From contig JAZFSR010000121.1 of the NCBI GenBank assembly GCA_036446295.1, positions 4,427 through 68,426 on the forward strand: a DNA stretch of 64,000 nucleotides, given 5' to 3'. This stretch comes from Candidatus Aminicenantaceae bacterium (GTDB lineage: Bacteria > Acidobacteriota > Aminicenantia > Aminicenantales > Aminicenantaceae). The notes under the pieces were generated by a model. That model saw only the letters and a program-made list of their open reading frames with translations, was not told the DNA's origin and did not search any database. Shown here in pieces: positions 15,461-53,028 of the stretch (position 1 is the stretch's first letter; the number at the start of each line of letters is the position of its first letter). Position numbers and translations under genes: made by a program.

Positions 15461-15535
15461 TGGTAGGCGCGGAGGGTATCGAACCCTCGACTTCTTCCGC
15501 GTCAGGGAAGCACTCTACCACTGAGCTACGCGCCT
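15461..15535 (-). tRNA. tRNA-Val (anticodon GAC), CCA encoded
   Basis: Reverse-complement folds as a cloverleaf: acceptor AGGCGCG/CGCGCCU, D-arm GCUC…GAGU, anticodon stem CUUCC/GGAAG with loop CUGACGC, T-arm GAGGG-UUCGAUA-CCCUC. Confidence 0.85.
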
Positions 15536-17200: not shown

Positions 17201-17343
17201 GAATTATTCATAAAAACTGCCTCCACCATCATTTCTCTCCAATGATATCAACTTTATAGCATGATTTTAGTAAGATCTCGAACATTTCTTTGTTTGTTGG
17301 CTAGTTTATACTAAATGTCGGCATTTTTTACCCCAAGGGGGCT
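17201..17343 (-). promoter_or_regulatory. Conserved 143-nt upstream leader (repeat B copy 1) with embedded sigma70-like promoter TTGGGG-17-TAGTAT
   Basis: About 75% identical to 31954-32096, in the same position relative to a different minus-strand gene. Read on the minus strand the putative -35/-10 are at 17331-17336 and 17308-17313. Confidence 0.5.
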
Positions 17344-17443
17344 GAGATGCGCCCCTCCATTGAAAAATTGGCAGGGGTATATTATACTAACAATTCCATT
17401 TTGGAACTTATATGCTTATAAAAAAACAAATAACGGAGTTTTA

Positions 17444-20632: not shown

Positions 20633-22831
20633 ATGGACCAAGAAAACGAAATTACGCAAATTAACAACGACGATCTTTCCTTTTTAGAAAAGGAACTGGC
20701 CAAAACCAAAACCCCTGTCGTACAGGAAGAACTGGTCACTAAAACCGCCTTCAAAAAGACTGCAATCCAGCGGTGCCTGGAAGCCAAAAAATACAATTCC
20801 GATTGTTTGTATGAAATCGGCGACCTCGTGTTTAAGGAATATGATGAACCGCTGACCATCAGCTCTAAAGGTACCGAACACTTTAAAGGTTCCGTGGTGC
20901 TTAAGGTAGTCAACAAATTTTCTCTTCCTGATTTCAACTGTGAAATGCTGGAAGTGGATTACTTGGGTGGGGGAGTATTCCGGAAGCATATCGACTACAT
21001 GAAAAAAACTCGTACGCAGGTTCTCCTTCCGAGCAACTGCGACGGAAAGGCTCTCTCTCCAAAAATATTACAGAAAGACGAAGACCCTCGGTTAAACGAA
21101 CTTCCCATGACAGATAAAGACCTGAGGAAACTGGAGAAAAATCTCAAATCGGCACTTTTAAAATCCGATAAATTTTTTAACTGGAATGAATTCTGGCAGC
21201 TGGAAGCAAACCGGATCGCTATTACAGACAAAGAGATTAAAAAAATTGAAAAAAAATTTATGGAGACCCCCCTCTCCACGGCCACGACAGATTTGATCCT
21301 TCAACTCTTTGATATCGATAAAAAAAATGAGCTGTTTGCCATTCACGCCCTCAGTCTCAATTTTGTTCTGGAAAAGAACTACAAGAAAAAATTCGTCTAT
21401 ATTTCTCCGGAAGATTGGGGGAAATGGTTCTCCAAGGAGACTCTCGATTCGTTTCTGGCCAATCTTCCCATCACAAAATCCAAGGCCAAGGTTCCACGTC
21501 TGGATGAAACCAGTCATGAATCCCTCTCTAATGCCCCGGAAATGCCATTAAAAGTCTATCTAACATGGAGAGAAGTTCTCTCCGGCTGCATTAAAATCCC
21601 CAAGAGTATGAACCGGCATTTTTCAAAGTCCAGAGAATACATCTTTACGGATTCAGACAGCGGCAAAGACTATGTCGTCTACTACTACCCCTCATCCAAT
21701 ATCTTTTATGGGCTGCAGGAATTCTACGAAAAAAACAATGTTCCCCAGGGAGCCAGTCTCACTATCGAGAAAAAGGACCTCACTTCATGCCATTTCAGCT
21801 TGAAAAAGTCAAAAAAGAAGCTCGAAGTACCCCACCTCACATATGACCCTAAAAAGGATGAGATCATGGACACCGGGGAAGAGGCATTCACTTTTTCCCT
21901 TCCTAACAAGATCATCTTTTTGGAACGTGAAACTCTGACCACTCTCTTGACTCTTTACAGACAGCGGAAAAATGTTGACCTTAAAGACCTGCTCATCCTC
22001 ATCTTTAAAAATTTTGGATTGGAAGGGCAGGCCCTCACTATCCACTATCAACGCGCTTTTCATCTTGTCGATTTTATCAAACGCACCACTATCGAAGATG
22101 TGGAGAATGTTCTTCTCAACTCTCCTGAATTTACACAATCGGAAAAGAGCAAGGGTCTTTTTCTCTATCCGCTTGAACTAGAAGAAGTATCCCCGGATGA
22201 GACAGGGGTGGAAGAACATATAGAAAAGCCCGTTGACGAAAAGATCGCCGCCATGGTCGAAGAAATAGAGGAAGAGATTCTCCCTGAAATCGGGACTGTC
22301 GGCGAGGTAGCCATCCCAGAAGGATCCAAGATTGTCGAAGTCATCGAGCCCGAAAAACCGGCTCCCGTCAAAGTTAAACCTCCCCCAGTAAAGCCTGACC
22401 GACCTCTACGCCGTAAAAAAGCTGTCGACATTGTAACCCCAGAAGAAAAAGTCCCCTTAGAGCCTTCTAAAAAAGAAAAACCGGCCAAAAAGAAAAAGGC
22501 CCGATTGAAGGAAGAGCAGGAAAGAGTTCCACGACGCAGACGCGGAGGGAAACGCTTCATCGAAGAACGGATCGAACTGGAAGAATCGGAACACGAAGCC
22601 CTGATCGCCCGCAAAGCAGAAGAATCGGAACAGGAAAGCATCATCCTGCCTGAGAAACCCAAAAAAGACGAAGCAAAAGAAATGGGCAAGAAAGAAGAAC
22701 TTGCGGAGTATGTCTCCGAAACCCCGGCGTCGTCTCTCTTTGCCGACAAACTCAAGTCAGCCCTGGGGAAGACACCGCCCAAAGCTTCTGACAAAGGGAA
22801 AAAATCTAAAAAAAGAAGAAAACAAACCTGA
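20633..22831 (+). CDS. Hypothetical protein, 732 aa, with extremely K/E/R-rich C-terminal ~200 aa
   Basis: Uninterrupted ORF starting 2 nt after the argF stop. No family recognised. The tail reads …KPAKKKKARLKEEQERVPRRRRGGKRF…KGKKSKKRRKQT. Visibly A-rich codon usage. Confidence 0.7.
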   Translation: MDQENEITQINNDDLSFLEKELAKTKTPVVQEELVTKTAFKKTAIQRCLEAKKYNSDCLYEIGDLVFKEYDEPLTISSKGTEHFKGSVVLKVVNKFSLPDFNCEMLEVDYLGGGVFRKHIDYMKKTRTQVLLPSNCDGKALSPKILQKDEDPRLNELPMTDKDLRKLEKNLKSALLKSDKFFNWNEFWQLEANRIAITDKEIKKIEKKFMETPLSTATTDLILQLFDIDKKNELFAIHALSLNFVLEKNYKKKFVYISPEDWGKWFSKETLDSFLANLPITKSKAKVPRLDETSHESLSNAPEMPLKVYLTWREVLSGCIKIPKSMNRHFSKSREYIFTDSDSGKDYVVYYYPSSNIFYGLQEFYEKNNVPQGASLTIEKKDLTSCHFSLKKSKKKLEVPHLTYDPKKDEIMDTGEEAFTFSLPNKIIFLERETLTTLLTLYRQRKNVDLKDLLILIFKNFGLEGQALTIHYQRAFHLVDFIKRTTIEDVENVLLNSPEFTQSEKSKGLFLYPLELEEVSPDETGVEEHIEKPVDEKIAAMVEEIEEEILPEIGTVGEVAIPEGSKIVEVIEPEKPAPVKVKPPPVKPDRPLRRKKAVDIVTPEEKVPLEPSKKEKPAKKKKARLKEEQERVPRRRRGGKRFIEERIELEESEHEALIARKAEESEQESIILPEKPKKDEAKEMGKKEELAEYVSETPASSLFADKLKSALGKTPPKASDKGKKSKKRRKQT

Positions 22832-25029: not shown

Positions 25030-26058
25030 ATGACTCAAACTTGGGAACCCCCTTCAGACTGGCTGCGGATTACAGCTATAGATGCACACACTGCCGGTGA
25101 ACCACTGCGGATCATCACCGGCGGATTTCCCCCCATCCCCGGGACAACGATTCTGGCCAAACGGCGGTACGTCCGGGAACACTTTGACCATCTGCGGAAA
25201 GCCCTCATGTGGGAACCACGAGGGCATGCCGATATGTACGGCTGTCTCCTCCTTGAACCCACAACTGAAGACGGAACCCTGAGCGTACTTTTTCTCCACA
25301 ATCTGGGCTACAGTTCCATGTGCGGTCACGGTATCATCGGCCTGTCCACCGTGGTTATGGAGACCGGTCTTTTCCATGTGGACAAAACTCAACCCAAGCT
25401 CCTTATCGACTCGCCCGCGGGGAGGATTACGGCGCGGGTTCATTGGGACAAAAACCGCATCCGGAGTACGACTTTCCAGAATGTCCCCTCATTTGTCCAT
25501 TCTCTCGATCAAACAATCACGGTCCCGGGTATTGGGGATGTCCGCTATGACATCGCATATGGAGGAGCTTATTATGCATTTGTAAAGGCGGAAGATTTTG
25601 GATTCAACCTTGTCCCTGATGAGTTTTCCACCCTTGTCGAAACCGGAAGACGCATCAAAAAGGCCGTTAAAAATCAAGTGGACATCCGGCATCCTTTTGA
25701 AGAAGATCTAGGCTTCCTCTACGGGACAATATTTGTCGGTCCCCCTCACGACAAGGCTCATCACAGCCGGAATGTGTGTGTTTTTGCCGATGGTGAAGTC
25801 GACCGGAGCCCGACGGGAACCGGAGTCAGTGCACGGGCCGCCCTTCATTTTGCCCGGAACGACATCACAGAGGGTGAGCCTTTTGTTATCGAAAGCCTTC
25901 TGGGAACATGTTTTACAGGACGTGTGGTCAACACCACGTCTTTTGGCAGCTATCCTGCCATTATCCCTGAAGTAACGGGGAGCGCTTTCATCGTGGGGCG
26001 CAGCGAATGGCTCATCGATCCCAATGACCCCCTCCGCCACGGTTTTTTCCTCCGCTAG
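25030..26058 (+). CDS. Proline racemase family protein, Cys/Thr type (predicted trans-3-hydroxy-L-proline dehydratase-like)
   Basis: 342 aa. First catalytic motif SMCGHG retains Cys. The second motif reads DRSPTGTG, so the second catalytic Cys is replaced by Thr. Confidence 0.85.
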   Translation: MTQTWEPPSDWLRITAIDAHTAGEPLRIITGGFPPIPGTTILAKRRYVREHFDHLRKALMWEPRGHADMYGCLLLEPTTEDGTLSVLFLHNLGYSSMCGHGIIGLSTVVMETGLFHVDKTQPKLLIDSPAGRITARVHWDKNRIRSTTFQNVPSFVHSLDQTITVPGIGDVRYDIAYGGAYYAFVKAEDFGFNLVPDEFSTLVETGRRIKKAVKNQVDIRHPFEEDLGFLYGTIFVGPPHDKAHHSRNVCVFADGEVDRSPTGTGVSARAALHFARNDITEGEPFVIESLLGTCFTGRVVNTTSFGSYPAIIPEVTGSAFIVGRSEWLIDPNDPLRHGFFLR

Positions 26059-27137
26059 AGGATCTCGCGTGTGGGACCTCTGCGCCGGGTGACTTTCATC
26101 TGGTCGAGAAGCTCGAGGAGAGGAATGGCGTACTTCCGGGAAAGGCCGGTCATCTCTTTGAATTGGCCAACAGTCAGCTCTTTTCCTTCTAGATTCCGGA
26201 TTTTGGCCACCAGCTCCTCCAGCCACTGAGAATGAAGGATAAATCCGTCTTCCCCCTGGACAATCTTTCTCCTTTCGGCCAGAAGAGAGAGAAGGTTTTG
26301 CAGCCGATGGGCGGAAAGATTGAAGCGTTTCTGGAAGTCTTCCATAGGGACAGAATGAAGCTTCCCCTCAAGACACATCTCTTCCAGCCTGTCAACGAGG
26401 CCTTCCTCCTCTGACGTCAGAGCCAGTTCAAAATCCATCACCGACAACCGTTTTTCGACCTCTTTAATTTGTTTCTCACGAATAAGATGTTTTAACGCGA
26501 GAAACCAGATTCGATCGGGGAGATCAAACTTCTGCTTCACTTCATTATTCAATACGCCCGGCTCATCCGGATGGGTCTCATGATAGCGCCGTATGAACTG
26601 GGTAATTTTCTCTTTGAGGAACTCAAAACTTGCATGAGAAAGCAAAAAAAGCGGGGAAAACGAGAGGATCCGGATCTGTCCTTCAGCTTCCAGCTTCTGA
26701 CAGAGAGGAAGCAGCGTTTTCCTTGTGATAGGAGCAAACTCCAGGATCTCTTTTTCCCTCAAACCCATAATTCCCTTATCCCGGGCGAGAACGGCTAACA
26801 TTCCGATCTTATCACCCCTGAGCTGGGGGAGAAGATTCGCCCTCTTTTTCGCGTCCTTCCCTATCAGTTTTTGATCGGCGGGATAGAGGACTTTTCCTGA
26901 ACCCAACACCTTCTCCGATCCCGGACTCAGGACATCAAAGGAATAGCTCCATTTAACAGTCACCGGTTTTGAGAGGGATACGGAAATGAATGAATCTTTC
27001 AAATCGTGGATACCGGTCTCATAGAAAGAAAATGAGCCCGGCACTTTTTCTTTTTTCAGCACAAATGTGGCATCGTGTGCATGGGCCTTCTTGGGCAAAA
27101 CAATATCGACAACCGCATCAAAAATAGAAGTTTTCAT
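26055..27137 (-). CDS. SelB C-terminal (winged-helix SECIS-binding) domain protein lacking the GTPase domain
   Basis: 360 aa. The C-terminus …GQFKEMTGLSRKYAIPLLELLDQMKVTRRRGPTREIL matches the terminal winged helix of SelB. Only 30 nt separate it from rnr upstream, so there is no room for EF-Tu-like domains I/II. Confidence 0.7.
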   Translation of the reverse strand: MKTSIFDAVVDIVLPKKAHAHDATFVLKKEKVPGSFSFYETGIHDLKDSFISVSLSKPVTVKWSYSFDVLSPGSEKVLGSGKVLYPADQKLIGKDAKKRANLLPQLRGDKIGMLAVLARDKGIMGLREKEILEFAPITRKTLLPLCQKLEAEGQIRILSFSPLFLLSHASFEFLKEKITQFIRRYHETHPDEPGVLNNEVKQKFDLPDRIWFLALKHLIREKQIKEVEKRLSVMDFELALTSEEEGLVDRLEEMCLEGKLHSVPMEDFQKRFNLSAHRLQNLLSLLAERRKIVQGEDGFILHSQWLEELVAKIRNLEGKELTVGQFKEMTGLSRKYAIPLLELLDQMKVTRRRGPTREIL

Positions 27138-35200: not shown

Positions 35201-35708
35201 AAGCATATTCAAGCGCAGCTTCCTCTGCTTTGTCCTCAAGTCCCAATCTCAGATAATGACTGATTTCTCCATTGAGACACCCTGAAAGGGCAATAAAGCC
35301 CTCCCCGTGCCTGGCTAAGAGTTCTTTGTCGACTCTTGGCCTATAGTAGAATCCCTCCCGGTAGCTGTCTGTGATGAGCTGACAAAGATTTCTGTAGCCT
35401 TTGTCGTCCTTGACGAGGAGAACGAGATGAAAGTGCTTCGGGCCCCGGACCTCCGGACTTTTATCAAACCGGCTCTTTGGCGCAACATAAACCTCACAGC
35501 CTAGGATAGGCTTAACTTTCCTCTCCTTTGCTTCCCGGAAAAAACTGACGGCGCCAAAAATGTTTCCGTGATCGGTCAGAGCTACGGCCGGCATGTTGAA
35601 TTCGTATGCGGCATCCACCATAGCCTTTGTCTTCCATGCCCCGTCCAGGATGCTGAATTCGGAATGGTTGTGTAGATGGATAAACGAAGCGCCCATGATC
35701 ATTCCCAC
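32211..35708 (-). CDS. dnaE: DNA polymerase III alpha subunit
   Basis: 1165 aa with an N-terminal PHP domain HLHNHSEFSILDGA, a polymerase core and an OB fold. Confidence 0.95.
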   Translation of the reverse strand: MGMIMGASFIHLHNHSEFSILDGAWKTKAMVDAAYEFNMPAVALTDHGNIFGAVSFFREAKERKVKPILGCEVYVAPKSRFDKSPEVRGPKHFHLVLLVKDDKGYRNLCQLITDSYREGFYYRPRVDKELLARHGEGFIALSGCLNGEISHYLRLGLEDKAEEAALEYASFFQEGDFYIEIQDHDLELQKKINPLLIRLARKLNLPLIATNDVHYRQKEDWESHDILLCVQTNKKVTDQERIRFDSHEFYFKSGDEMMELFADVPDAVDNSTKIASQCNFEFHSSTGSGYSLPQFTPPKGIDLDEYFERIAREGFEKRMQAIVESRDKAELPDREVYTKRFDREVRLVKQMGFEGYFMIVWDLIREAKIKDIPVGPGRGSAAGSLLAYSLGITDIDPIEYGLIFERFLNPERISLPDIDIDFCARRRDEILSYVKNKYGRDNVCQIITFGTMAARGAVRDVGRALEVPLPEVDKIAKMIPPVGPDASIERALKTIKPLKELRDQNVKIANLLANAVKLEGQVRHPSIHAAGIVITPTPIVEFMPIYQSTKGEITTQFPMGDIEAIGLLKMDLLGLRNLTVIKDTVEIIKKKTGETLCLDEIPLDDEKTFSLFQTGNTDGVFQFESPGMKDLLRKYIPENFRDLIAMNALYRPGPLKSGMTDEFVKCKHHPDRIKYESPELEPILKETKGVIVYQEQVMQIATNLAGFSMAEADILRKAMGKKKTSVMKAQKQRFIHGAKEKGVSHSKATKIFEQINYFAGYGFNKSHSAAYACLAYRTAYLKAHYPVYFLASLLTSEAERGATSQLVKYINECKEMGIELLPLDINASDFNFTESEGNIRFGLSAVKNVGEGAIQAILKSRKKRGMFSSPFDLFEDVDSKAVNRKVIESLIKSGSLDSLGWKRSQLFHLVDRMIGYAHELQKMKASKQSSLFSQGQDDPPEVSAEIRGMREWDEPLLLSYEKDALGFYVTGHPLAQFGKSLKRLTSHFIGEVDENNDFNSEIRLAGIIASIKPLKTKKDERMATFMLEDLTGRIEVVVFPDNFQKFYEHLREDLMVLVKGKFLGEGEGRRIHLSRITPLIEAFEKLARRVVLKIFLPGLEETIFEELKTILEKHQGKCPILFDLQTPHSYRMVVQSIEAQSVKPSEEFTRNVEALLGEDSVLIEY

Positions 35709-37231
35709 TCAATGGTTCCGGGAGGCTTGGATGTGATGTCGTACACCACCCGGTTTACACCATTGACTTCGTTGACGATACGGTTGGAGATCTTGGTCAG
35801 GAGAGAAGGTTCCGCCGGATACCAGTTGGCCGTCATCCCGTCCACACTCTGAACAAGCCTGATGACAACAACTCTCTGGTACGTCCTGAGGTCACCCATG
35901 ACTCCTACAGACCGGACAGGGAGCAGGACGGTAAACGCCTGCCACAACTGCTTGTACAGGCCAGATCGTATAATCTCATCAAGAAGAACACTGTCCGCTT
36001 CCCGTAGAATTCTCAGTCTCTCTCGTGTAACTTCCCCCACAATCCTGACGGCCAGCCCCGGGCCGGGAAAAGGATGCTGATGGATAAAGTCCCTGTCTAC
36101 GCCCAGTTCTTCTCCCAGGGCCCGTACTTCATCCTTAAAAAGTTCTCGGAGGGGCTCGATGAGCTTGAATTTCAATCCTTTGGGAAGACCCGCGACATTA
36201 TGGTGAGATTTAATTCTGGATGAAGGGCCTTTGACAGGACTGCTTTCGATAACATCCGGATAAATCGTGCCTTGGGCCAGAAATTGGACATTCCCAATCT
36301 TGGCCGCTTCCCTTTCAAAGATCCGGATGAAGACTTCACCAATGATTTTTCTTTTTCTCTCAGGGGAGATGATTCTCTCAAGCCTTTTGAGGAAGTCCTC
36401 GGTGGCGTCCACTCCGATTACATTTAGGGAGAACTTTTCCCGGAATTTGTCCATAAGGTCCTGGTGCTGTCCCTTCCGAAGCAGCCCATTGTCGACAAAA
36501 ATACACGTGAGATTGTCTCCGACAGCCTTATGGACGATGAGGGAGGTGACCAAAGAATCCACTCCACCACTCAGGCCGCAGATAATCTTTCCATTCTTGA
36601 CCTGTTCGCGGATGATATCGGCTTCCCTTTGGACGAAAGACCCCATCGTCCAATCTGGTTTTAAACCGGCTTGAGAAAAAATGAAATTGGACAGGATCTT
36701 TTTTCCCTGTTTGGTGTGAACAACTTCAGGATGAAACTGAACGCCGAAAATTCTTTTTTTCCTGTTTTCGATCACCGCGGCTTTCGAATTGGACGTCAAT
36801 CCTGTGACGACAAATCCCTCTGGAATCCTGTTGATTTTATCCCCATGACTCATCCAGACCTGGCTGCTCTCCCTTATTCCGGCAAGAAGCCCCTTTCGGT
36901 CTTTAACAGTCAGGGATGCAAATCCGTATTCTCTTTTTGTCGAAGACGCAACCTTCCCGCCCAATACGTGGGCCATGAGCTGCAGGCCGTAGCAGATGCC
37001 AAGCACTGGAATTCCGAGAAAAAATATTCCTTCCGGGATCAGAGGCGCTTTTTCCGAGTACACACTGCTGGGGCCCCCGGACAAGATAATGGCCCCAGGA
37101 TTTTCTTTTTTTATCCGGGAAAGGGAAATATTAAAAGGAACGATTTCAGAGAAAATTCCGAGTTCTCTAACCTTGCGGGCAATGAGTTGAGTGTACTGTG
37201 AGCCAAAATCGAGGACTAAAACCTTATCCAT
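35699..37231 (-). CDS. guaA: GMP synthase (glutamine-hydrolysing)
   Basis: 510 aa with a GATase1 domain (Cys in GICYGLQ), an ATP-PPase SGGVDS motif and a C-terminal dimerisation domain. Confidence 0.95.
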   Translation of the reverse strand: MDKVLVLDFGSQYTQLIARKVRELGIFSEIVPFNISLSRIKKENPGAIILSGGPSSVYSEKAPLIPEGIFFLGIPVLGICYGLQLMAHVLGGKVASSTKREYGFASLTVKDRKGLLAGIRESSQVWMSHGDKINRIPEGFVVTGLTSNSKAAVIENRKKRIFGVQFHPEVVHTKQGKKILSNFIFSQAGLKPDWTMGSFVQREADIIREQVKNGKIICGLSGGVDSLVTSLIVHKAVGDNLTCIFVDNGLLRKGQHQDLMDKFREKFSLNVIGVDATEDFLKRLERIISPERKRKIIGEVFIRIFEREAAKIGNVQFLAQGTIYPDVIESSPVKGPSSRIKSHHNVAGLPKGLKFKLIEPLRELFKDEVRALGEELGVDRDFIHQHPFPGPGLAVRIVGEVTRERLRILREADSVLLDEIIRSGLYKQLWQAFTVLLPVRSVGVMGDLRTYQRVVVIRLVQSVDGMTANWYPAEPSLLTKISNRIVNEVNGVNRVVYDITSKPPGTIEWE

Positions 37232-37323
37232 GTATAGATTTTATCAGAAAATATTTCCTCACGCTAGAAAAAACGTCAAAACATCCTCATTTTCGTGATT
37301 TAGAGAACTAGTTTTCCATGAAC

Positions 37324-37596
37324 TAGCTAGATTATTAGAAATCAAACCTTGTCTTCTTCTTGAGATGAAGGCGGGACCCCTCCGCGGCGCACCTCCGTCC
37401 TCGCTCTGATCGCTGCGCGCAGAGATACACCGCTTCGCCCTTCCTTCATCTCCTTCAAGATAAATCTGATATAGGGATGCATACCTTTCGTAACACCTGC
37501 AGCAGAGTCGGATGGACGTCGAGAAGTGTGTCTCCGCCCGGAGCTTCAGCGAGGAATGGAGACATACCTCGTAAGGGTTCCGTCCGACTCTAAAAG
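37324..37596. repeat. ~270-nt GC-rich structured repeat (repeat A copy 1)
   Basis: About 90% identical to 42643-42913 in the same orientation. Contains nested stems, e.g. GAGATGAAGG…CCTTCATCTC and GAGTCGGATGGACG…CGTCCGACTC enclosing GTGTCTCC…GGAGACAT. Confidence 0.85.
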
Positions 37597-37607
37597 AAAT
37601 AAGGGAA

Positions 37608-38879
37608 ATGGAAAGACTTTCGCCTGTTTTCTCTCCAATTGACTTGGGAAGGCATATTTCTTATAGTGTCTATCTGATGGACAGGCAAAAAATCACGTCA
37701 GAATTGAGCTACGACACTCCTTCTAAAATCGTGCTGCTGGTTTTGGACGGCCTGGGAGGCCTGCCCATAAATGGAAAAACCGCCCTCCAAGCCGCAAAAA
37801 CTCCCCATCTCGATGCCTTGGCGGCCCGAAGTGTATGCGGGCTGACAGATCCTGTTTTTATGGGGATCACTCCAGGAAGCGGTCCCGCTCACCTCTCTCT
37901 ATTTGGATACGATCCCACGAAATACATCCTCGGCCGGGGCATCCTTGAAGCCATGGGCATAGGAGTGGACGTGGGAGAAAATGACCTTGTTGCCCGGGGA
38001 AATTTTGCCACACTCACAAACGGTCTTATCTCGGACCGCAGGGCCGGAAGGATTCCTTCCAGTGAAAACGCCCGTATCTGTGAAAAAATCAACAGGGAAT
38101 TAGGAACCGTCGAAGAGACAGATATCTCTCTTTTCCCCGGAAAAGAACACCGGTTTGTCGTCAGATTTAGAGGGGAAGGGCTCTCGGACTCTCTTTATGA
38201 TGCCGACCCTCAAAAAAATAACACGGCCCCGATATCCCCCGAAGCCAAAAAAGAGGAGGCCGAACGGGCCGCAAAGATCGTGAATGTCTTTATGGAGAAA
38301 ACAACTCTCCTCTTAAAGGATTCCCCAAAGGCCAATACCGTTCTTCTGCGCGGTTTTTCTAAGCTCCCCTCACTCCCGGCCATGGACAACCTGTTCCATC
38401 TGAAACCGGTCGCCGTGGCGCACTACCCCATGTACAGGGGTCTCGCCAAGCTAGTCGGTATGGAGATTGCTGAAGTTGGGCCAACAATCGAAGACGTCTT
38501 TACGACGGCCGAAAAAATCTATGAAGACTATAACTTCTTCTATCTGCACGTCAAAAAGCCGGATGCTGCCGGAGAAGATGGATGTTATGAAGAGAAGATA
38601 AAGGCTATTTCAGAAATCGATACATACATTCCCCGACTTCTGGCCCTTCATCCCGATGTCCTCGCCGTCACATCAGACCATTCCACGCCCTGTCTGCTCA
38701 AATCCCATTCCTGGCATCCTAATCCCTTTCTGCTTCATTCACGCACGGCTCAGCAGGACCAGGTGGAGACTTTCTCTGAAATACAGTGCGCTTCCGGATA
38801 CCTGGGCCGTTTTTCAGCCCTCAACACCATGCCCCTTTTAATGGCCCATGCGGAGAAGCTTAAAAAATATGGCGCCTAA
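37608..38879 (+). CDS. apgM: Cofactor-independent phosphoglycerate mutase, archaeal-type (ApgM family)
   Basis: 423 aa with a metalloenzyme-superfamily N-terminus …IVLLVLDGLGG… and an ApgM-like C-terminal domain. AAGGGA Shine-Dalgarno 6 nt upstream. Confidence 0.8.
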   Translation: MERLSPVFSPIDLGRHISYSVYLMDRQKITSELSYDTPSKIVLLVLDGLGGLPINGKTALQAAKTPHLDALAARSVCGLTDPVFMGITPGSGPAHLSLFGYDPTKYILGRGILEAMGIGVDVGENDLVARGNFATLTNGLISDRRAGRIPSSENARICEKINRELGTVEETDISLFPGKEHRFVVRFRGEGLSDSLYDADPQKNNTAPISPEAKKEEAERAAKIVNVFMEKTTLLLKDSPKANTVLLRGFSKLPSLPAMDNLFHLKPVAVAHYPMYRGLAKLVGMEIAEVGPTIEDVFTTAEKIYEDYNFFYLHVKKPDAAGEDGCYEEKIKAISEIDTYIPRLLALHPDVLAVTSDHSTPCLLKSHSWHPNPFLLHSRTAQQDQVETFSEIQCASGYLGRFSALNTMPLLMAHAEKLKKYGA

Positions 38880-40083
38880 ACCGCATGTGACAAGAATGCA
38901 GAAACCTAAGATTTTCTCTCTCCTATTCGGACCGCTGCTTTTCTTCTTCTGTTTCTCTCTTGTCCTTCTCTTTTCGCAGGGTGACACCCGTGTTGAAATC
39001 GCCAATCTTCGCTATCATATCCATCCCTCTTTTACACGGATTGTCCTAGACATCGGAAAGATCAGAGAGTTCAGCTCCAATCAGTTGACCTCGCCCGGCC
39101 GGGTCTATGTCGATATCTATCAAACCAAGCTCAATCCCATTCTCAAAGACAGAACCATTACGGTCAACAATGCCTACATCCACCAAATCCGGATTGCCCA
39201 GAGTACCAATTCAACCGTTAGGGTCGTCGTGGATGTGGACATCAATTCGGTCAAACGCTACGATGTGTTTCCTCTCCTTGATCCCTTCCGGATTGTCTTG
39301 GACATTTACCCAAAAGAGGCCTCTTCGACTCCCCCTGCTTCAAAAGTCAGCAAGACCCCCAAACCCACCTCCTCCGGATACAGCATGGTCCGACAGCTCG
39401 GATTGGGGATCCAGAGGATTGTCATCGATCCAGGACACGGAGGAAAAGATCCGGGGTGCATCGGAAAAAAGGGCACCTATGAAAAGGATATAGTCCTGGA
39501 TATCTGCATTCGCCTGAAGAAACTCCTACTCCAGAACAAGGGACTCGAAATTATCCTCACAAGGGAGACAGACATCTTCGTTCCCCTGGAATACAGGGTT
39601 AAGATCGCCAACCAGAAAAAGGCTGATATTTTCATCTCCGTACATGCCAACTCCTACCCGAACAGGAAACGCGCCGGAGTCGAAACCTACTACCTCAATT
39701 TCAGCCGGGATCCGGATGTGCTCGAAGTCGCCGCCCGGGAAAATGCCACCGTCACCAAAAACATCAGCCAACTAGGAGAAATCCTGGAAGAAATCATCCG
39801 GACCAGCAAACTCTTGGAATCGAGAGATCTCGCCAACCGCCTACAAAAAAACCTGGTCACACGGCTTGCCTTAAAATACAAAGAGGTCAAGAACTTAGGC
39901 GTCAAAGGGGGCCCGTTCTGGGTTCTGAAGGGAGGAGAAATGCCGTCCGTTCTTGTGGAAATTTCCCATCTCAGCAATCCACTCGAAGAAGAACGGCTCA
40001 ACACCACCCAATACCGTCAAGCGGTCGCCCAAGGAATCTACGAAGGAATCCTTCAATATATAGAATCGCTAGGAAAAGGATGA
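38869..40083 (+). CDS. N-acetylmuramoyl-L-alanine amidase (Amidase_3) with N-terminal TM/AMIN-like region
   Basis: The catalytic domain VIDPGHGGKDPG…ISVHANS…ETYYL is clear. The exact start is ambiguous (Met at 38848, 38869 or 38896). Confidence 0.75.
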   Translation: MAPKPHVTRMQKPKIFSLLFGPLLFFFCFSLVLLFSQGDTRVEIANLRYHIHPSFTRIVLDIGKIREFSSNQLTSPGRVYVDIYQTKLNPILKDRTITVNNAYIHQIRIAQSTNSTVRVVVDVDINSVKRYDVFPLLDPFRIVLDIYPKEASSTPPASKVSKTPKPTSSGYSMVRQLGLGIQRIVIDPGHGGKDPGCIGKKGTYEKDIVLDICIRLKKLLLQNKGLEIILTRETDIFVPLEYRVKIANQKKADIFISVHANSYPNRKRAGVETYYLNFSRDPDVLEVAARENATVTKNISQLGEILEEIIRTSKLLESRDLANRLQKNLVTRLALKYKEVKNLGVKGGPFWVLKGGEMPSVLVEISHLSNPLEEERLNTTQYRQAVAQGIYEGILQYIESLGKG

Positions 40084-40089
40084 TCGGCC

Positions 40090-40977
40090 ATGAAGAGAAG
40101 AGAATTCATCAAAGATCTTGCCATCGGAGGCCTGGTCCTCAATCTGAATCCCCAAATATATGCGCAGGGATCGAGCTCACCTGATCTGGCTGTTATTATG
40201 GGAGACTCGCCTGCTCTCATCACCCAAGAGGCTGTTTCCGCGCTGGGTGGAATGAAACGTTTTGTCTCAAAGGGAGACAAAGTGATGGTCAAACCCAACA
40301 TTGGCTGGGATAGGACTCCGGAACAGGGAGCCTGCACCAATCCCGAAGTTGTAAAAACTCTCGTCGAACTCTGCTTTGATGCGGGAGCTAAACAGGTCAC
40401 GGTCATGGACAATCCCTGCAATCCTGCTCAGAGGACATACGTACGTTCAGGAATTGCCAAGGCGGCCAAGGCTGCCGGTGCCAAAACACCGTTCCCCAAC
40501 AAGTTCAAGCTGAAAAAACTGGCCCTCAATGGAGAATGGTTTAAAGAATGGGATATCTACACCGACTTCACCGAAGTGGACAAGATCATCAATGTCCCCG
40601 CAGCTAAAACTCACAGCCTTTCAAGGATCACGCTGGGCATGAAAAACTGGCTCGGAGCCCTGGGAGGCAACCGCAGTCAACTCCATCAAAACCTGGACTA
40701 TGCCATGGTCGATCTCGCCCGATTCTTCAAACCCACTTTGACCGTGCTCGATGCCTACCGCCTGCTGATCCGAAACGGACCACAGGGCGGCAGGCTTTCC
40801 GATGTTAAAGTTTTTAAAACCATAGTGGCCGGTGTGGACTATGTCGCCGTTGACGCTATGGGGGCAACCTTTTTCGACATCAAACCAGAAGAACTTCCCT
40901 ACCTCCAGCTGTCCAAGGAAAGAGGGATGGGAGAAATTGACCTGGAGAAACTAAACGTTGAAAAAAGAACGGTCTAA
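40090..40977 (+). CDS. DUF362 domain protein with twin-arginine signal
   Basis: 295 aa. N-terminal MKRREFIKDLAIGGLVL… is a Tat motif. The remainder matches the DUF362 family that commonly accompanies ferredoxins. Confidence 0.75.
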   Translation: MKRREFIKDLAIGGLVLNLNPQIYAQGSSSPDLAVIMGDSPALITQEAVSALGGMKRFVSKGDKVMVKPNIGWDRTPEQGACTNPEVVKTLVELCFDAGAKQVTVMDNPCNPAQRTYVRSGIAKAAKAAGAKTPFPNKFKLKKLALNGEWFKEWDIYTDFTEVDKIINVPAAKTHSLSRITLGMKNWLGALGGNRSQLHQNLDYAMVDLARFFKPTLTVLDAYRLLIRNGPQGGRLSDVKVFKTIVAGVDYVAVDAMGATFFDIKPEELPYLQLSKERGMGEIDLEKLNVEKRTV

Positions 40978-42586
40978 AAAATACAAGCTCATCCAGACTC
41001 TTAGAATTATCACCCAGATAGGTTTTTTCTGCTTGTTCTTTTTTCTCCTTATGCAAACCCGATTTCTCGGACAGGACTACATCGGCCGGGTGGAAATATT
41101 TTTTCACTTCGATCCCCTGCTGGCAGTCGCCACCTTTATCGCCTCCCGCGCCATCTTCCTTGCTTTTGTGTATGCCGCCATCACTCTTATAGTCACCGTT
41201 GTGCTTGGGCGGGTCGTGTGTGGCTGGGTCTGTCCTTTAGGATCTCTGCATCAGTTTTTTTCCTGGATTTTCAAAAAGACAAAACTGCTCCGCCCTGAGA
41301 GACTTAAGACAGTCAAAGACAAGCGCCTTGCCTGGAAATATTATCTTCTTATCTTCCTTCTGGTCAGCACTTTCTTTACCCTGGATTTGGTCGGAATTTT
41401 TGATCCCTTCTCTCTTCTCTACCGGTCTTTTATCTTAGGATTCCTTCCTGCCATCGATTTTACCATTGAAAATCTGATTGGGGTTTTGTACAAAATCAAT
41501 CTCTCCTCAATCGGGGACGGGCTCGTTCAATTTTTTGAAACCCTGGCAATTAATGCCATTTTCATCCAGGGAGCTTTAATCGCCGCTATCTTCATCGGCC
41601 TGGTGCTGTTGAATATGCACAGGGAAAGATTCTGGTGCCGGTATCTCTGTCCACTTGGTGCTTTTCTCGGTCTGGCCAGCCGATTTAATCTCCTCAAGCT
41701 TAAAGTGTCAGAAAAAAAATGCATCAAATGCAACCTGTGTACCATACACTGTCAAACTTTGGCCAATCCCTGGCCCAATGAAGATTGGAAGAGTTCGGAG
41801 TGCGATTACTGCTTCACCTGCAGCGCAATCTGTCCGACCAACGCCATCACTTTTCCCGTTAAAGCCAAATCCGAGAGCATCGATGCTGTCGATCTCTCCC
41901 GCCGGAAAGTTATTCTGACCTCTTTAATGAGCATCGTCGCCGTGCCCTTTTTTCGGATTTCTCCGGCGAAAATCCGGGCTTCGGAAAAATTGATACGGCC
42001 TCCCGGAGCCCTTCCTGAAGCCCAATTCCTTCAGAAATGTGTCCGATGTGGTGAATGCATGAAGGTCTGCCCAACCAACGCCCTGCAGCCGGCTTGGACA
42101 GAAGCCGGACCGGAAGGGCTCTGGACACCCATGCTCGTTCCCAAGATCGGGTACTGTGAACACTACTGCTCTCTCTGCACCCAGGTCTGTCCGACCGGAG
42201 CCATCAAAGCCCTGTCAATCGCCGCAAAAAATCAGATCTGTATCGGAACAGCCTGGATCGATAAGAACCGCTGTATTCCCTGGATATACGGGGACTCCTG
42301 CATTGTCTGTGAGGAACACTGTCCCGTCTCCCCTAAAGCCATCAAGTTCATCAAAATCGAAGTCCCCCTCCCCGACGGGGTGATCAAAACCCCACTGGCC
42401 CCACAAATTGAAGTGGACAGCTGCACGGGATGCGGTATATGTGAAACAAAATGCCCCGTGGTCGATTTGCCTGCCATCTATATAACGAGTGTGGGGGAAA
42501 CCCGGTCAGAGCAGAATCAGATGCGGCTGGAATTGATCCAACCCGAATTCAATATCATCGATCCCGGTGAAGATATCTTCAAGTAA
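40958..42586 (+). CDS. Membrane-bound polyferredoxin (4Fe-4S binding protein, NapH/MauN-like)
   Basis: 542 aa. N-terminal TM helices with CGWVCPLG, then at least four CxxCxxCxxxCP clusters. Confidence 0.75.
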   Translation: MKKERSKKYKLIQTLRIITQIGFFCLFFFLLMQTRFLGQDYIGRVEIFFHFDPLLAVATFIASRAIFLAFVYAAITLIVTVVLGRVVCGWVCPLGSLHQFFSWIFKKTKLLRPERLKTVKDKRLAWKYYLLIFLLVSTFFTLDLVGIFDPFSLLYRSFILGFLPAIDFTIENLIGVLYKINLSSIGDGLVQFFETLAINAIFIQGALIAAIFIGLVLLNMHRERFWCRYLCPLGAFLGLASRFNLLKLKVSEKKCIKCNLCTIHCQTLANPWPNEDWKSSECDYCFTCSAICPTNAITFPVKAKSESIDAVDLSRRKVILTSLMSIVAVPFFRISPAKIRASEKLIRPPGALPEAQFLQKCVRCGECMKVCPTNALQPAWTEAGPEGLWTPMLVPKIGYCEHYCSLCTQVCPTGAIKALSIAAKNQICIGTAWIDKNRCIPWIYGDSCIVCEEHCPVSPKAIKFIKIEVPLPDGVIKTPLAPQIEVDSCTGCGICETKCPVVDLPAIYITSVGETRSEQNQMRLELIQPEFNIIDPGEDIFK

Positions 42587-42642
42587 TCTTTCCTCAAGAA
42601 GGCCTCTCTGTTTTCACTATAGGAGCAGAGTTCTGTAAAGTG

Positions 42643-42913
42643 ATTAGAAATCACGCTTTGTTATCTTCTGCTGGAGATGAAGGCGGGACCCCTTCCGCGG
42701 CGCACCTCCGTCCTCACTCCTCCGTCGTTGCGCGCAGAGATACACCGCTTCGCCCTCCCTTCATCTCTATCAAGATAGATCGGCTTGAGAAGGATGCATA
42801 CCTTTCGTAACACCTGCCGTTGAGTCGGATGGACGTCGAGAAGTGTGTCTCCGCCCGGAAGCTTTAGCGAGGAATGGAGACATACCTCGTAAGGGTTCCG
42901 TCCGACTCTCAAA
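42643..42913. repeat. ~270-nt GC-rich structured repeat (repeat A copy 2)
   Basis: See 37324-37596. Lies between the convergent polyferredoxin (+) and etfA (-) genes. Confidence 0.85.
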
Positions 42914-42955
42914 TTAACACGGAGGAACTACGGATTTCTCCAACATCTTCTCTAG

Positions 42956-43933
42956 TCATTCAGAAAGGAGTTTTTTGAGTTCGTCTTTAAGCAGCGGGAG
43001 GATCTGGAAGAGATCACCAATCACACCGAAGTCGGCCACTCTGAAAATCGGGGCCTCAGGATCCTTGTTGACGGCCACTATGACCTTCGACGAGGACATC
43101 CCTGCGATGTGCTGGATGGCTCCCGAAATACCAAAAGCAAAATAGATGTTTGGTGACACGGTTTTCCCTGTCTGTCCGACCTGATGCTGGTGGTCGATCC
43201 AACCGGCATCAACGGCCGAACGAGATGCCCCGACTGCTGCGTGAGGAAGGATGGAAGTGAGCTCCCGCAGTAAATCAAAATTTTCCGGGCCCTTCATCCC
43301 GCGTCCACCCGAAACCACAATTTCCGCCTCGGTCACATCCAGGGCCGTACCTTCCGTCTTGAGTCGTTCGACAACCTGATCCATCACCTTCTCTTCCGCC
43401 AAAGCCACGTCTTTCTTGACCAATTCCCCCCGAGTATCAAGGGGCTCAATCAGGGGAAACACATTGGGCCGAAGTGAGGCCATCACGGGAGAAGATTTAA
43501 AAGAGAACGTTGCCAAGACCCTGCCTGCGTAGATCGGCCGGACGACTTCCAGTTTCCCGCTGTTGACCGTCAGCCGGATACAATCCGTTGCCAGGCTCAC
43601 ACCAAGGCTTGCCGCCAATCGAGGCGCCAGATCCTTGCCCATCGCCGTGGCCGAGAAGAGGACTGCGGCAGGTTTGAGTTCATCTATTAAAACTTTGAGG
43701 GCCAAGGCAAAGCCTGAGGGAGAATAGTGGCTTAGCAGCGTATTCTCCAGAACAAACACCTTTGAGGCCCCATAGCGGAATACTTCTGAAGAGAAATCTT
43801 CAACATTGTGCCCCAAGATAGCCGCAGCAACAGCCAGGTTCATCTCATCGGCCCGTCTCTTGGCTTCAGAAAGAACCTCCAGTGAAGATTTCTTGATTTT
43901 CCCGTCCCTTATTTCTATGTAAACTAAAAACAT
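42956..43933 (-). CDS. etfA: Electron transfer flavoprotein alpha subunit
   Basis: 325 aa with an N-terminal ETF domain and a C-terminal FAD-binding region …[17 protein letters not shown]…. Confidence 0.9.
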
Positions 43934-43942
43934 CGATTCCTC

Positions 43943-44725
43943 CTATAAAACCTTTGCTTCTTCTCTCAAAAATTCGACAATTTTTTTTGCCGCCACATCC
44001 GGTTCCTCTTCGATAACCTCTCCGTCTCCTCTCAGGGGAGGGCTCTCCATTTTGATAAGCTCGAGCATAGGAGCCAGTTGATCCTCATCAAGTCCCAATT
44101 CCTCCACTTTAACGACGGGAATCTCCTTCCTTTTGGCCGCCATAATCCCCTTTAATGTTTCATAGCGGGGTTCATTCAATCCTTTTTGGGCGCTGATTAC
44201 GGCAGGAAGTGTAAATGCGACTTTTTCTACTGCGCCTTCTATCTCCCGGTAAGCACTTCCGGTATTTCCCTCTATCTCCAGTTTGGTCACCACGTTTACC
44301 TGCGGGAGTCCAAGCCCTTCCGCCACCATTGATGGAATCTGGGAATTATCTGCCCCGACGGACTGCTTCCCGAACAAAAGAAGATTATAATCAGAATATT
44401 TTGTCCGGAGGACCTGGACAAGAATGCGTGCTGTCCGCAGTCCATCGTATGTTTCTTTTAACTCGTCCTTTAAAAGCACCGCCTCATCTGCACCCATGGC
44501 CAACGCCTTTTTCAAAATGGGGATGCTGTCATCCGAGCCTACGGAAAATACGGTCACAGTGGTCTCCCCGGCTTCTTTGAGACGAAGGGCCTCTTCGACG
44601 GCATATTCATCATAAGGATTGATCACAAAGCTCAATCCTTCTTCTATGATACTGTTGGCTGCATGGTCTATTCTGATTTTGGATTCGGTATCTGGAACTC
44701 TTTTTACAAATACAAAAATATTCAA
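43943..44725 (-). CDS. etfB: Electron transfer flavoprotein beta subunit
   Basis: 260 aa, MNIFVFVKRVPDTESKIRID… is the typical EtfB. Confidence 0.9.
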   Translation of the reverse strand: MNIFVFVKRVPDTESKIRIDHAANSIIEEGLSFVINPYDEYAVEEALRLKEAGETTVTVFSVGSDDSIPILKKALAMGADEAVLLKDELKETYDGLRTARILVQVLRTKYSDYNLLLFGKQSVGADNSQIPSMVAEGLGLPQVNVVTKLEIEGNTGSAYREIEGAVEKVAFTLPAVISAQKGLNEPRYETLKGIMAAKRKEIPVVKVEELGLDEDQLAPMLELIKMESPPLRGDGEVIEEEPDVAAKKIVEFLREEAKVL

Positions 44726-44769
44726 TTAGACCTCCTTATAAATAATCTTATTTATATGTATGAAAAAAT

Positions 44770-44798
44770 ATTATATTTTTTTTACCGATGCCGGTCAA
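44770..44798 (-). promoter_or_regulatory. Candidate sigma70 promoter for etfBA (TTGACC-17-TATAAT)
   Basis: Read on the minus strand ~45 nt upstream of the etfB ATG. Confidence 0.4.
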
Positions 44799-44823
44799 AT
44801 ATTGAATGAAAATGAGGATACAT

Positions 44824-44846
44824 CATCTTCTGCATGAGATGAAGGG
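44824..44846. repeat. Partial third copy of the 5' end of repeat A (ATCTTCTGCATGAGATGAAGG)
   Basis: Matches the first ~22 nt of the repeat A core (TCTTCT.C.TGAGATGAAGG) and is followed by a G8 run. Confidence 0.5.
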
Positions 44847-44861
44847 GGGGGTTAGGAGTTT

Positions 44862-46121
44862 TTATTCAGGCAAATAGCGTTTCAGGAGAAGAGTAGCATT
44901 CGTTCCCCCAAAACCGAAGGAATTGGACAGGCCAAAATTAATGCTCGCTTTCCGCGCTGTATTAGGCACATAATCCAGGTCACATTCAGGGTCCGCGGTC
45001 TCATAGTTGATCGTGGGTGGCATGATCTGGTTGTATAGAACTAAGGCCGTAATCCCTGCCTCAATACCTCCCGCAGCACCAAGAAGATGCCCGGTCATGG
45101 ATTTTGTGGAACTGATGGCAATCTTGTTTGCGTGATCCCCAAAGACTTTTTTGATCGCCAGAGTTTCAATTTTATCATTATAGAACGTGGACGTGCCGTG
45201 CGCATTGATATAATCAACGGCCTCGGGAGGGATTCCGGCATCTTTGATCGCCTCTCTCATCGACAACTGGGCTCCGGCCCCATCCAGCTGCGGAGAAGAC
45301 ACATGATAGGCATCCCCGCTCATCCCGTAGCCGGTGATTTCAGCATAAATCTTGGCTCCTCGTTTTTTCGCCGTTTCCAACTCCTCAAGAAGAAGGATTC
45401 CGGCGCCCTCTGACATGACAAAGCCGTCTCTGTCTTTGTCGAAAGGCCGGGACGCCTTTTGGGGTTCATTATTCCTTGTCGACAGGGCTCTCATGGCACA
45501 AAATCCAGCAATTCCCAGCGGTGTCAGCGGCGCTTCCGCGCCCCCGGCAATCATCCGGTCCGCATCGCCTCTGGCAATCATCCGAAAGGCATCCCCCACG
45601 GCGTGAGAACTAGTCGAACACGCCGTGCAAGTGGCCGAATTGGGTCCTTTGGCTCTGAACCGGATGGAGATCTGTCCGGCAGCTTCATTGATAATCGATG
45701 AGATTAAAAAGAAGGGAGAAACTCTTGTGGGGCCCTTTTCTAGAAGCAACTTGTGGTTTTCTTCGATCGCCCCGATCCCGCCAATTCCCGAGCCCACACA
45801 GACTCCCGTTCGCTCTCCGGAGAGAACCTCGGGATCGATTCCGGACATATCGACAGCAATTTGAGCCGCGACCACACCAAACTGGATAAAGGGGTCCATC
45901 TTTCGAACCTCTTTCCTCTCGATGAATTGGAGGGGATCGAAATCTTTGACCTCTCCTGCAATTGTCGTTGTAAATCCCGCAGTGTCGAACCTTGAAATAT
46001 ATCCAATTCCGCTTTTTCCTTCAAGAAGAGACGCCCAGGTTTCCTCCGTCCCGACGCCCAAGGCGGAAACCATCCCAATTCCGGTGATTACGACTCTACG
46101 AATTGAAGGATTCTGTCCCAT
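44862..46121 (-). CDS. fabF: 3-oxoacyl-[ACP] synthase II
   Basis: 419 aa with the KAS II catalytic triad context (…ACSTSSHA…, …HGTST…, …GHLLGAAG…). Confidence 0.95.
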   Translation of the reverse strand: MGQNPSIRRVVITGIGMVSALGVGTEETWASLLEGKSGIGYISRFDTAGFTTTIAGEVKDFDPLQFIERKEVRKMDPFIQFGVVAAQIAVDMSGIDPEVLSGERTGVCVGSGIGGIGAIEENHKLLLEKGPTRVSPFFLISSIINEAAGQISIRFRAKGPNSATCTACSTSSHAVGDAFRMIARGDADRMIAGGAEAPLTPLGIAGFCAMRALSTRNNEPQKASRPFDKDRDGFVMSEGAGILLLEELETAKKRGAKIYAEITGYGMSGDAYHVSSPQLDGAGAQLSMREAIKDAGIPPEAVDYINAHGTSTFYNDKIETLAIKKVFGDHANKIAISSTKSMTGHLLGAAGGIEAGITALVLYNQIMPPTINYETADPECDLDYVPNTARKASINFGLSNSFGFGGTNATLLLKRYLPE

Positions 46122-48903: not shown

Positions 48904-48996
48904 ATTTTAGGCTCTTTGGAAAAAAGTTAACTTATTATACCATCTTACCTTAGTTTGTCAATAATGCAGATATCCATTTCATCCTAAGAGTTCCGC

Positions 48997-49024
48997 TTGA
49001 AATCGCTGGAAAGAGACGTATAAT
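48997..49024 (+). promoter_or_regulatory. Candidate sigma70 promoter TTGAAA-16-TATAAT upstream of small ORF/polA
   Basis: Near-consensus hexamers with 16-nt spacing, 25 nt before the ATG at 49049. Confidence 0.45.
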
Positions 49025-49048
49025 AGGAAAAAACGAGCAGGAAAAAAT

Positions 49049-52879: not shown

Positions 52880-53028
52880 GACATAGCTTTAAGTCCCATC
52901 CTGGTAACAGCTTATCCATAAAGGGAAAAAGCGTCAAATGAAAATTTTTCACTATTTTTATCAATTATCCTGGTTAGCAAATATAGATTCAATTATCTAT
53001 AATGATTATTCATTCAAAACTTAAAACA

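Follow-up and report, generated by a model that had tools for sequence, protein, structure and literature searches.

Bacterial MITEs include the Correia/NEMIS elements of Neisseria, RUP and BOX of Streptococcus and ERIC/IRU of the enterobacteria. The BIMEs of E. coli are bacterial interspersed mosaic elements, with IHF, gyrase and Pol I as protein partners. REPINs are extragenic inverted doublets of about 70-110 nt that form hairpins, and REP sequences occur with RAYT transposases (Bertels & Rainey 2011, PMC3116915).

In this study a 64-kb stretch of DNA was analysed; the whole stretch is referred to as the window. Two copies and a relic of one repeat were found in it, and our analysis suggests, with a probability of about 0.7, that they belong to a non-autonomous mosaic DNA repeat family with inverted ends in a narrow uncultured clade of Aminicenantes. 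The family is most likely MITE/REPIN-like, with MITEs, REPINs and BIMEs as its nearest known counterparts, rather than a new RNA gene. In the literature we found no description of MITEs from Aminicenantes.

Copies of the element in the window

Comparison of the window with itself (blastn) revealed direct repeats at 37324-37596 and 42643-42913 with 88.2% identity over 271 nt (E 1e-93 to 3e-93). The first-pass annotation of this DNA had described two near-identical direct copies, about 90% alike over about 270 nt, and the copies are indeed in the same orientation at close to that identity. The unit length of about 270 nt given there proved too short, and the family HMM together with the strain comparison extends both copies to the approximate limits listed in Table 1. 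The element is made up of module A (5' arm), module B (GC-rich hairpin), module C (linker), module D (88-nt hairpin) and a tail. The stems proposed earlier were seen in both copies, namely GAGAUGAAGG/CCUUCAUCUC (37362-37452) and GAGUCGGAUGG/CCGUCCGACUC (37505-37590), the latter enclosing GUGUCUCC/GGAGACAU. The description of the element as much more GC-rich than its surroundings applies to modules B (66%) and D (57%) only and not to the whole unit, which has 50-52% GC; the values for the flanking intergenic DNA and for the window are 28-36% and 48.8%, respectively. Module B (37362-37452 and 42674-42767) appears as a 66% GC insert in a 49% GC genome.

Table 1. Positions of the repeat copies, their modules and the neighbouring promoter-like sites in the window.
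Feature	Position	Strand	Evidence or remark
Copy 1, complete composite (A-B-C-D-tail)	37282..37626	+	family HMM 37282-37616, E 1.5e-109
Copy 1, 5' terminal inverted repeat (CATCCTCATTTTCGTGATTT)	37282..37301	+	17/20 match to consensus CATCTCCATTTCCGTGATTT
Module A, AT-rich 5' arm, begins CATCYCCATTTCCGTGATTT	37282..37361	+	GC 32.5%
Module B, GC-rich hairpin domain closed by GAGATGAAGG/CCTTCATCTC	37362..37452	+	GC 66%
Module C, linker with small decaying palindrome (AGGGATGCAT(A/C)CCT)	37453..37503	+	
Module D, 88-nt imperfect hairpin (AGAGTCGGATGG...CCGTCCGACTCT)	37504..37591	+	RNAalifold 33-pair consensus
Copy 1 tail, including 3' terminal inverted repeat	37592..37626	+	core GGAAATGGAAAGA at 37604-37616
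Copy 2, composite element	42600..42955	+	family HMM 42607-42929, E 9e-103
Degraded family relic	44800..44849	+	pre-B region and 5' strand of B closing stem: CATCTTCTGCATGAGATGAAGG
17-nt end-repeat-like remnant (ATATCCATTTCATCCTA)	48970..48986	+	window 48930-49030 aligned with L059 2790-3050
Promoter-like site of apgM, TTGACT-17-TATAGT	37639..37667	+	promoter scan, 10/12 matches
Promoter-like site of divergent GMP-synthase gene, TTGACG-18-AATATT	37250..37279	-	promoter scan

The element lacks coding capacity. As had been noted, it holds no convincing ORF: the two copies have none in common, since all frames are disrupted by five small indels. The 83-aa minus-strand ORF of copy 2, which had already been described as lacking a counterpart with conserved coding in copy 1, is spurious. 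This ORF gave 11 matches when used as a protein query, and the two whose contigs were fetched belong to the same clade.

Copy 2 had been placed between convergent gene ends, and it sits between the stop codons of a Fer4 gene and etfA. It consists of a partial module A, module B at 42674-42767, module C at 42768-42820 and module D at 42821-42909, followed at 42910-42955 by a degenerate tail and an inverted-A remnant, which reaches up to the stop codon of etfA. Locus L048 (loci from the searches below carry L numbers) likewise has a truncated module A in inverted orientation in its 3' flank, and copy 2 is of that type.

The relic is located in the intergenic DNA that separates the stop codon of fabF from the start of etfB. 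A partial third copy at 44824-44846 had been proposed here; the match on its own is weak (blastn 44825-44849, 24-25 nt, E 0.004-0.014), and the HMM extends it to 44800-44849 (E 0.007). It is regarded as a degraded family member because L059 has an end repeat and module A at the same site; L057 conserves the relic itself.

Modular organization of the family

The tail closes with the reverse complement of the ~21 nt that open module A, and the element thus has terminal inverted repeats of ~21 bp with the consensus CATCTCCATTTCCGTGATTT (AAGCATCYCCATTTCCGTGATTT). The terminal 13-mer CATCTCCATTTCC is present at each end, the two being inverted relative to one another. At the 5' end of copy 1 the outer 13-mer has 10/13 matches, where 0.07 hits per element are expected by chance, and only true ends reach this score. 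A derivation of B and D from end-repeat copies inside the element was ruled out on the same count. Longer inverted arms were found in the 170-nt element of L059 (~50 bp) and in L048 (~33 bp).

Family members range from simple to composite forms. The smallest are end-to-end hairpins of ~68 nt (L046 9628-9694 and L049 3824-3890), which are reduced to a pair of inverted ends joined by a short loop and resemble REPINs. A form of ~170 nt, made of A and inverted A, occurs in L059 at 2835-3003 upstream of a YceD-family gene and folds as single-stranded DNA into one long hairpin (z -4.8). Forms of ~200 nt have two ends enclosing C and D (L038/L064), and larger forms include the ~335-nt A-B-C-D-tail element present in the window and composites of ~460 nt, such as that of L048.

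The individual modules are likewise combined in different ways. Module A, which has an internal inverted repeat (CGTGATTT...AAATCA), is common to L051, L043, L050, L039, L065 and L048. Module B has lost its interior and retained its closing stem in L039, L065 and L037. Module D is also found without B and C, in L061/L049, L041 (twice) and L045. Deletion variants have their junctions at short direct repeats, for example CGCTTCG in L058, L055 and L053.

In L041 inverted D hairpins at 2150-2242 (+) and 3726-3823 (-) flank a 468-aa pyridine-nucleotide disulphide oxidoreductase gene, and one of the two belongs to the diverged D2 subfamily.

Gene context of copy 1 and the start of apgM

Copy 1 had been described as lying in a divergent promoter region and ending 12 nt before apgM. 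The divergent promoter region stands, but the start assigned to apgM at 37608 is probably spurious. The promoter scan found promoter-like sites that flank copy 1 (Table 1), that of the GMP-synthase gene with its -35 at 37279-37274 (-), and copy 1 is therefore positioned between two divergent -35 boxes. The apgM promoter-like site is kept in L057, where copy 1 is lacking. No promoter-like site (on either strand) and no terminator-like site was found within copy 1 or copy 2.

The first 23 codons of the extended apgM ORF (37608-37676) are composed of repeat tail and promoter region. The start at 37608 is doubted because most homologues align only from residue 21-24 and because the promoter precedes an ATG at 37677. 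Judged from the sequence, the 37608 start is probably an in-frame extension into the repeat tail, and the true start of the 423-aa ORF is probably ATG 37677. The promoter-like site lies ~10 nt from this ATG; the arrangement suggests an apgM mRNA that may be leaderless or have a very short leader. Knowledge of the repeat family thereby corrects an apgM start artificially extended into the repeat.

A portable 5' leader with a start codon, formed by the SD-like GGA and the ATG of the tail, was considered and rejected. In other copies this ATG opens ORFs of 7-23 codons, ~10 sites face gene ends, and the apgM start itself probably lies downstream.

Two further observations concern the genes of the window. 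Five ORFs of 331-732 aa (598-1593, 17315-18751, 20633-22831, 53002-54033 and 54748-55872), located among housekeeping genes, matched no Pfam family at E 1e-5. A 360-aa ORF at 26055-27137 (-) matches only SelB winged-helix domains 2 and 3, with the GTPase part in an adjacent ORF or frame, and may represent a split gene or an ORF-calling artefact.

Distribution of the family

A search with a 20-mer from module D, the 3' hairpin, found 30 metagenome loci beyond the window, in SDBS/SDBT/SDBU, several JGI Ga… samples and PVMS, and the copy count thus revealed a dispersed family. HMM searches identified 33+ copies, which occupy ~27 different intergenic sites and come from Aminicenantes populations closely related to each other. 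The linker 20-mer GATGCATACCTTTCGTAACA had no match in the genome contig collection, and scans and blastn searches found no element in viral contigs, plasmids or phages. The element was also absent (nhmmer) from all 35 loci obtained by an apgM-based search, from which the family is taken to be clade-restricted. Among species-representative genomes, the closest apgM relatives come from Candidatus Aminicenantes MAGs, and their proteins are 68% identical or less.

The first-pass annotation had allowed that only these copies exist and derive from a recent local segmental duplication. The two copies in the window are 5.3 kb apart and in the same orientation. However, there are ~27 further sites elsewhere, on unrelated contigs, the DNA between the two copies is single and not duplicated, and the 95%-identical strain (L057) has one copy and not the other. 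A local duplication of no wider significance is thereby excluded as an explanation of the repeat.

Analysis of flanking ORFs (Pfam) at five related loci revealed unrelated housekeeping genes as neighbours, for example glutamyl/glutaminyl-tRNA synthetase, a galactokinase-like GHMP kinase, an SNF symporter, PmbA/TldD and pyridine-nucleotide disulphide oxidoreductase. The orientation of the element relative to genes is mixed, with ~14 sites facing a gene start and ~10 a gene end. Genes for transposase, RAYT, TnpB, IscB, IS110-type enzymes or invertase were found neither in the 64-kb window nor among the ORFs by five copies, and none of these mobility genes was present among the genes called on four contigs fetched by protein.

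Comparison with closely related strains

Of the related strains, L057 is 95% identical to window 35638-45919 (~10 kb), and L059 is ~90% identical. At the copy 1 site, L057 lacks 37294-37626 between flanks that are 95% identical, with a TTTT overlap at the junction, and of the 5' end repeat only the initial 12 nt are left. At the copy 2 site, both L057 and L059 carry an element between the same convergent stops in the opposite orientation, and these versions differ from that of the window in module content too. At a fourth site, just the 17-nt remnant of the window (Table 1) corresponds to a ~170-nt member in L059. Elsewhere in the clade, L061 keeps ~40 nt where L050, L065 and L042 bear a full or deleted member, and the elements of L051 and L058 are oppositely oriented, although their left boundaries coincide to the base.

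Presence/absence differences were seen at three sites (that of copy 1, the fourth site and that of L061), and each 'empty' site retains a fragment of the 5' end repeat. Because this piece is retained, the polymorphisms may be losses and not gains. As far as the aligned sequences go, deletion or gain may explain the strain polymorphisms equally. Copy ends were also compared for target-site duplications, and no consistent duplication was found at c1/L057, L059/window, L065/L061, L046, L049 or L051; the sole overlap was the TTTT microhomology at the copy 1 junction.

The opposite orientations at two sites in close strains (copy 2 against L057/L059, and L051 against L058) are what would be expected of invertons, in which the inverted ends serve as sites for an invertase encoded elsewhere and flipping alters the expression of neighbours. 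Such an explanation would also account for a unit bounded by inverted repeats, for the left boundary shared by L051 and L058 in both orientations, and for a small segment that appears flipped at the relic site. It is nevertheless improbable. The oppositely oriented versions differ in module content and are not simple flips, no sigma-70-like promoter site lies inside either copy on either strand, and neither the window nor the neighbouring genes that were examined include one for an invertase or recombinase. Furthermore, the examined neighbours are housekeeping genes, unlike the typical surface or phase-variable loci.

A second type of repeat was noticed in the same comparison. At L057 8665-8901 (corresponding to about 44740-44755 of the window) an unrelated insert of ~237 nt lies between etfB and fabF and is missing from the window. 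It has inverted repeats of its own, GGATTCGAGGGTTCAAGGGTTCC... and ...GAATCCTTGACCCCTAGAATCC, and looks like a palindromic repeat of another family that this clade also carries.

Conservation of hairpin D and of the other modules

Comparison of 18 copies revealed a mean pairwise identity of 98.6% for module D (98.2% outside the retrieval 20-mer). The corresponding identities are 87-92% for B, 74% for C, in which 2-3 subfamilies can be recognized, and 52-58% for A and the tail; part of this contrast is due to ascertainment, the copies having been retrieved by the D 20-mer. The D2 subfamily (CCTCCCGTGAGGG) is found only in the incidentally found copies L041b and L067b. Orthologous copies gave two different results: in L054/L056 the flanks are 83-90% identical and D is 100% identical, and in L061/L067b the flanks are 84-85% identical and D is 76% identical. 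Simple purifying selection on every D copy was rejected, as the orthologous L067b copy has diverged more than its own flanks. Given these alignments, concerted evolution or replacement, or recent spread of D as a unit, appears more likely as the cause of its near-invariance than selection on each copy.

A sequence-specific function of D, and possibly of B, as a single-strand element would offer another account of this pattern, and we consider it unlikely. Under this account D would be either a RAYT-like recognition hairpin or an RNA scaffold or guide used in trans. The RAYT-like version would amount to a vertically inherited system in a phylum where none is described, and the scaffold or guide would serve a recombinase or nuclease. 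Ongoing replacement would keep D nearly identical at dozens of sites and the surrounding modules would decay.

RNA structure, covariation and Rfam comparison

The first-pass annotation had matched the element to no known RNA family, and Rfam agreed: the element had no match at gathering score, and a tRNA at 15464-15535 is all that the window yields at this cutoff. With E-value cutoffs, the long hairpin attracted nothing beyond miRNA-like matches attributable to chance (25.6 bits for the best, where the gathering score is 90), and HEARO did not match even at E up to 10.

RNA folding of the whole element was tried and not retained, as z-scores were modest (-2.0 to -3.5) and the structures differ between the two copies. 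Folding of the separate modules revealed a strand preference. Module D has z-scores of -5.6 on the plus strand and -4.0 on the minus strand (-3.8 as single-stranded DNA), with four wobble pairs on plus and folding energies of -46.7 kcal/mol on plus against -38.1 on minus. Module B folds at -50.3 kcal/mol (z -5.4) on minus and -31.2 (z -1.4) on plus. Its closing stem is 98% paired across 17 copies, and for its inner 14-bp helix pairing is 100% on the minus strand (15/15 copies) but 72.5% on the plus strand. All seven wobble positions in the B helices fall on the minus strand (7 vs 0), with no A.C. The two modules thus differ in the strand that they favour, minus for B and plus for D. This opposite preference fits separately derived hairpin modules, or strand-biased C-to-T decay of palindromes, better than one transcript.

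The pairing of the B minus-strand helix was matched by shuffles. Two pairs with double changes were found in B/C and 175 of 500 shuffles gave the same, and covariation of B/C above shuffled or slid controls was not seen. Module D varies little among the copies, with compensatory change at one pair among 18 copies and at two further pairs in diverged copies; its changes are U-A to C-G (L057), G-C to A-U (L041b) and U.G to U-A (L045 and L063). Some single-strand structural constraint on module B is plausible, because all variable positions of the inner helix stay paired on the minus strand.

A new structured sRNA family was among the possibilities raised for this DNA, and more generally B and D could be functional parts of a structured ncRNA (sRNA, cis-acting leader or stabiliser) with the repeat merely as carrier. 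In one variant D would be a REP-like hairpin that stabilises or processes mRNA and can be used either way round. These ideas draw on the stability of D (33 pairs, z -5.6) and its 98.6% identity while other modules fell to 52-74%, on its compensatory or wobble-resolving changes in L057, L041b, L045 and L063, on the inner helix of B, which is fully paired as minus strand, and on closing stems that are retained despite deleted hairpin interiors. A functional ncRNA is nonetheless doubtful. The hairpins prefer opposite strands, a poor fit to a single transcript, and covariation did not exceed that of the shuffled or slid controls. No Rfam family matched, orientation to genes is mixed, and neither copy has a promoter-like or terminator-like site; copy 1, between its divergent -35 boxes, lies outside both predicted transcription units. 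The orthologous D copy in L067b, 76% identical against 84-85% for its flanks, indicates that purifying selection is not uniform.

A HEARO/omega-RNA-like mobile-element RNA had also been suggested. More broadly, the family could be the remnant or satellite of a guide-RNA mobile element (TnpB/IscB with omega-RNA, or IS110-type with bridge RNA) and D a scaffold used in trans. This is very improbable, although D is an irregular hairpin of ~90 nt with internal loops that is conserved in sequence as well as in structure, and several 'empty' or neighbouring sites resemble the element's own end, which is compatible with sequence-guided targeting. Rfam gave no match, HEARO included, at E up to 10, and neither the window nor the surroundings of the copies with examined neighbours contain a gene for TnpB, IscB, a recombinase or an IS110-type enzyme. 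Furthermore, no conserved variable 'guide' segment lies beside D, and D occurs in both orientations relative to the flanking genes.

Proposed spread of a mosaic DNA repeat

The MITE/REP-like alternative of the earlier annotation is the one that agrees with the dispersed copies, terminal inverted repeats, strain differences in presence/absence and orientation, and internal-deletion variants. In a MITE/REPIN-like mosaic family the element would have spread to permissive intergenic sites, such as those between promoters and just past stop codons, by a transposase acting in trans. The candidate mover is a DDE enzyme that would recognise the inverted ends; alternatively, a single-strand HUH/Y1 enzyme of RAYT or IS200 type could recognise the hairpins. 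Later reshaping would have involved inversion between the element's own inverted repeats, as well as the loss of hairpin interiors and of DNA lying between short direct repeats. Counting against a MITE, the ends are the least conserved part (52-58%) and D the most conserved (98.6%), the reverse of a typical active MITE. This contrast between D and the inverted ends is the one point on which further work could pay off.

With this family, an orphan sequence of Aminicenantes contigs that stands out by its structure and GC-richness is explained as a repeat. The family marks hotspots of intergenic rearrangement between strains, and this bears on MAG assembly and strain tracking. It can be used as bait for its transposase, and it could test for REPIN-like, vertically inherited repeat populations outside Proteobacteria and Cyanobacteria.

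Comparison with known repeat systems

Comparison with bacterial MITEs revealed many shared properties. The Aminicenantes elements are likewise small (68-460 nt) and non-coding, have terminal inverted repeats and stable hairpins, and occur in many intergenic copies, often beside promoters or stop codons. Internal-deletion and modular variants (compare the A-B-C structure of BOX) and presence that varies between strains are also common to both. Unlike MITEs, the Aminicenantes family has no target-site duplication or cognate transposase in the DNA examined. Its ends are the least and the internal 88-nt hairpin D the most conserved parts, and its orientation differs between strains at the same site.

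The resemblance to REPINs (PMC3116915) lies in module D (88 nt, 33 pairs) and the ~68-nt end-to-end hairpins, which are extragenic and predicted to fold as single-stranded DNA or mRNA, and in a dominant 'master' version with subfamilies that occur in clusters or mosaics. In contrast to REPINs, no RAYT gene accompanies the family in the window, in the ORFs by five copies or on the fetched contigs, the arms are not short REP palindromes of 20-40 nt, and the composites hold extra modules (B and C), up to 250 nt, inside the hairpin. With BIMEs there is no sequence relationship, and the Aminicenantes units are much longer. Both are nevertheless mosaics of palindromic units and linker motifs whose number and orientation vary between strains at the same intergenic site.
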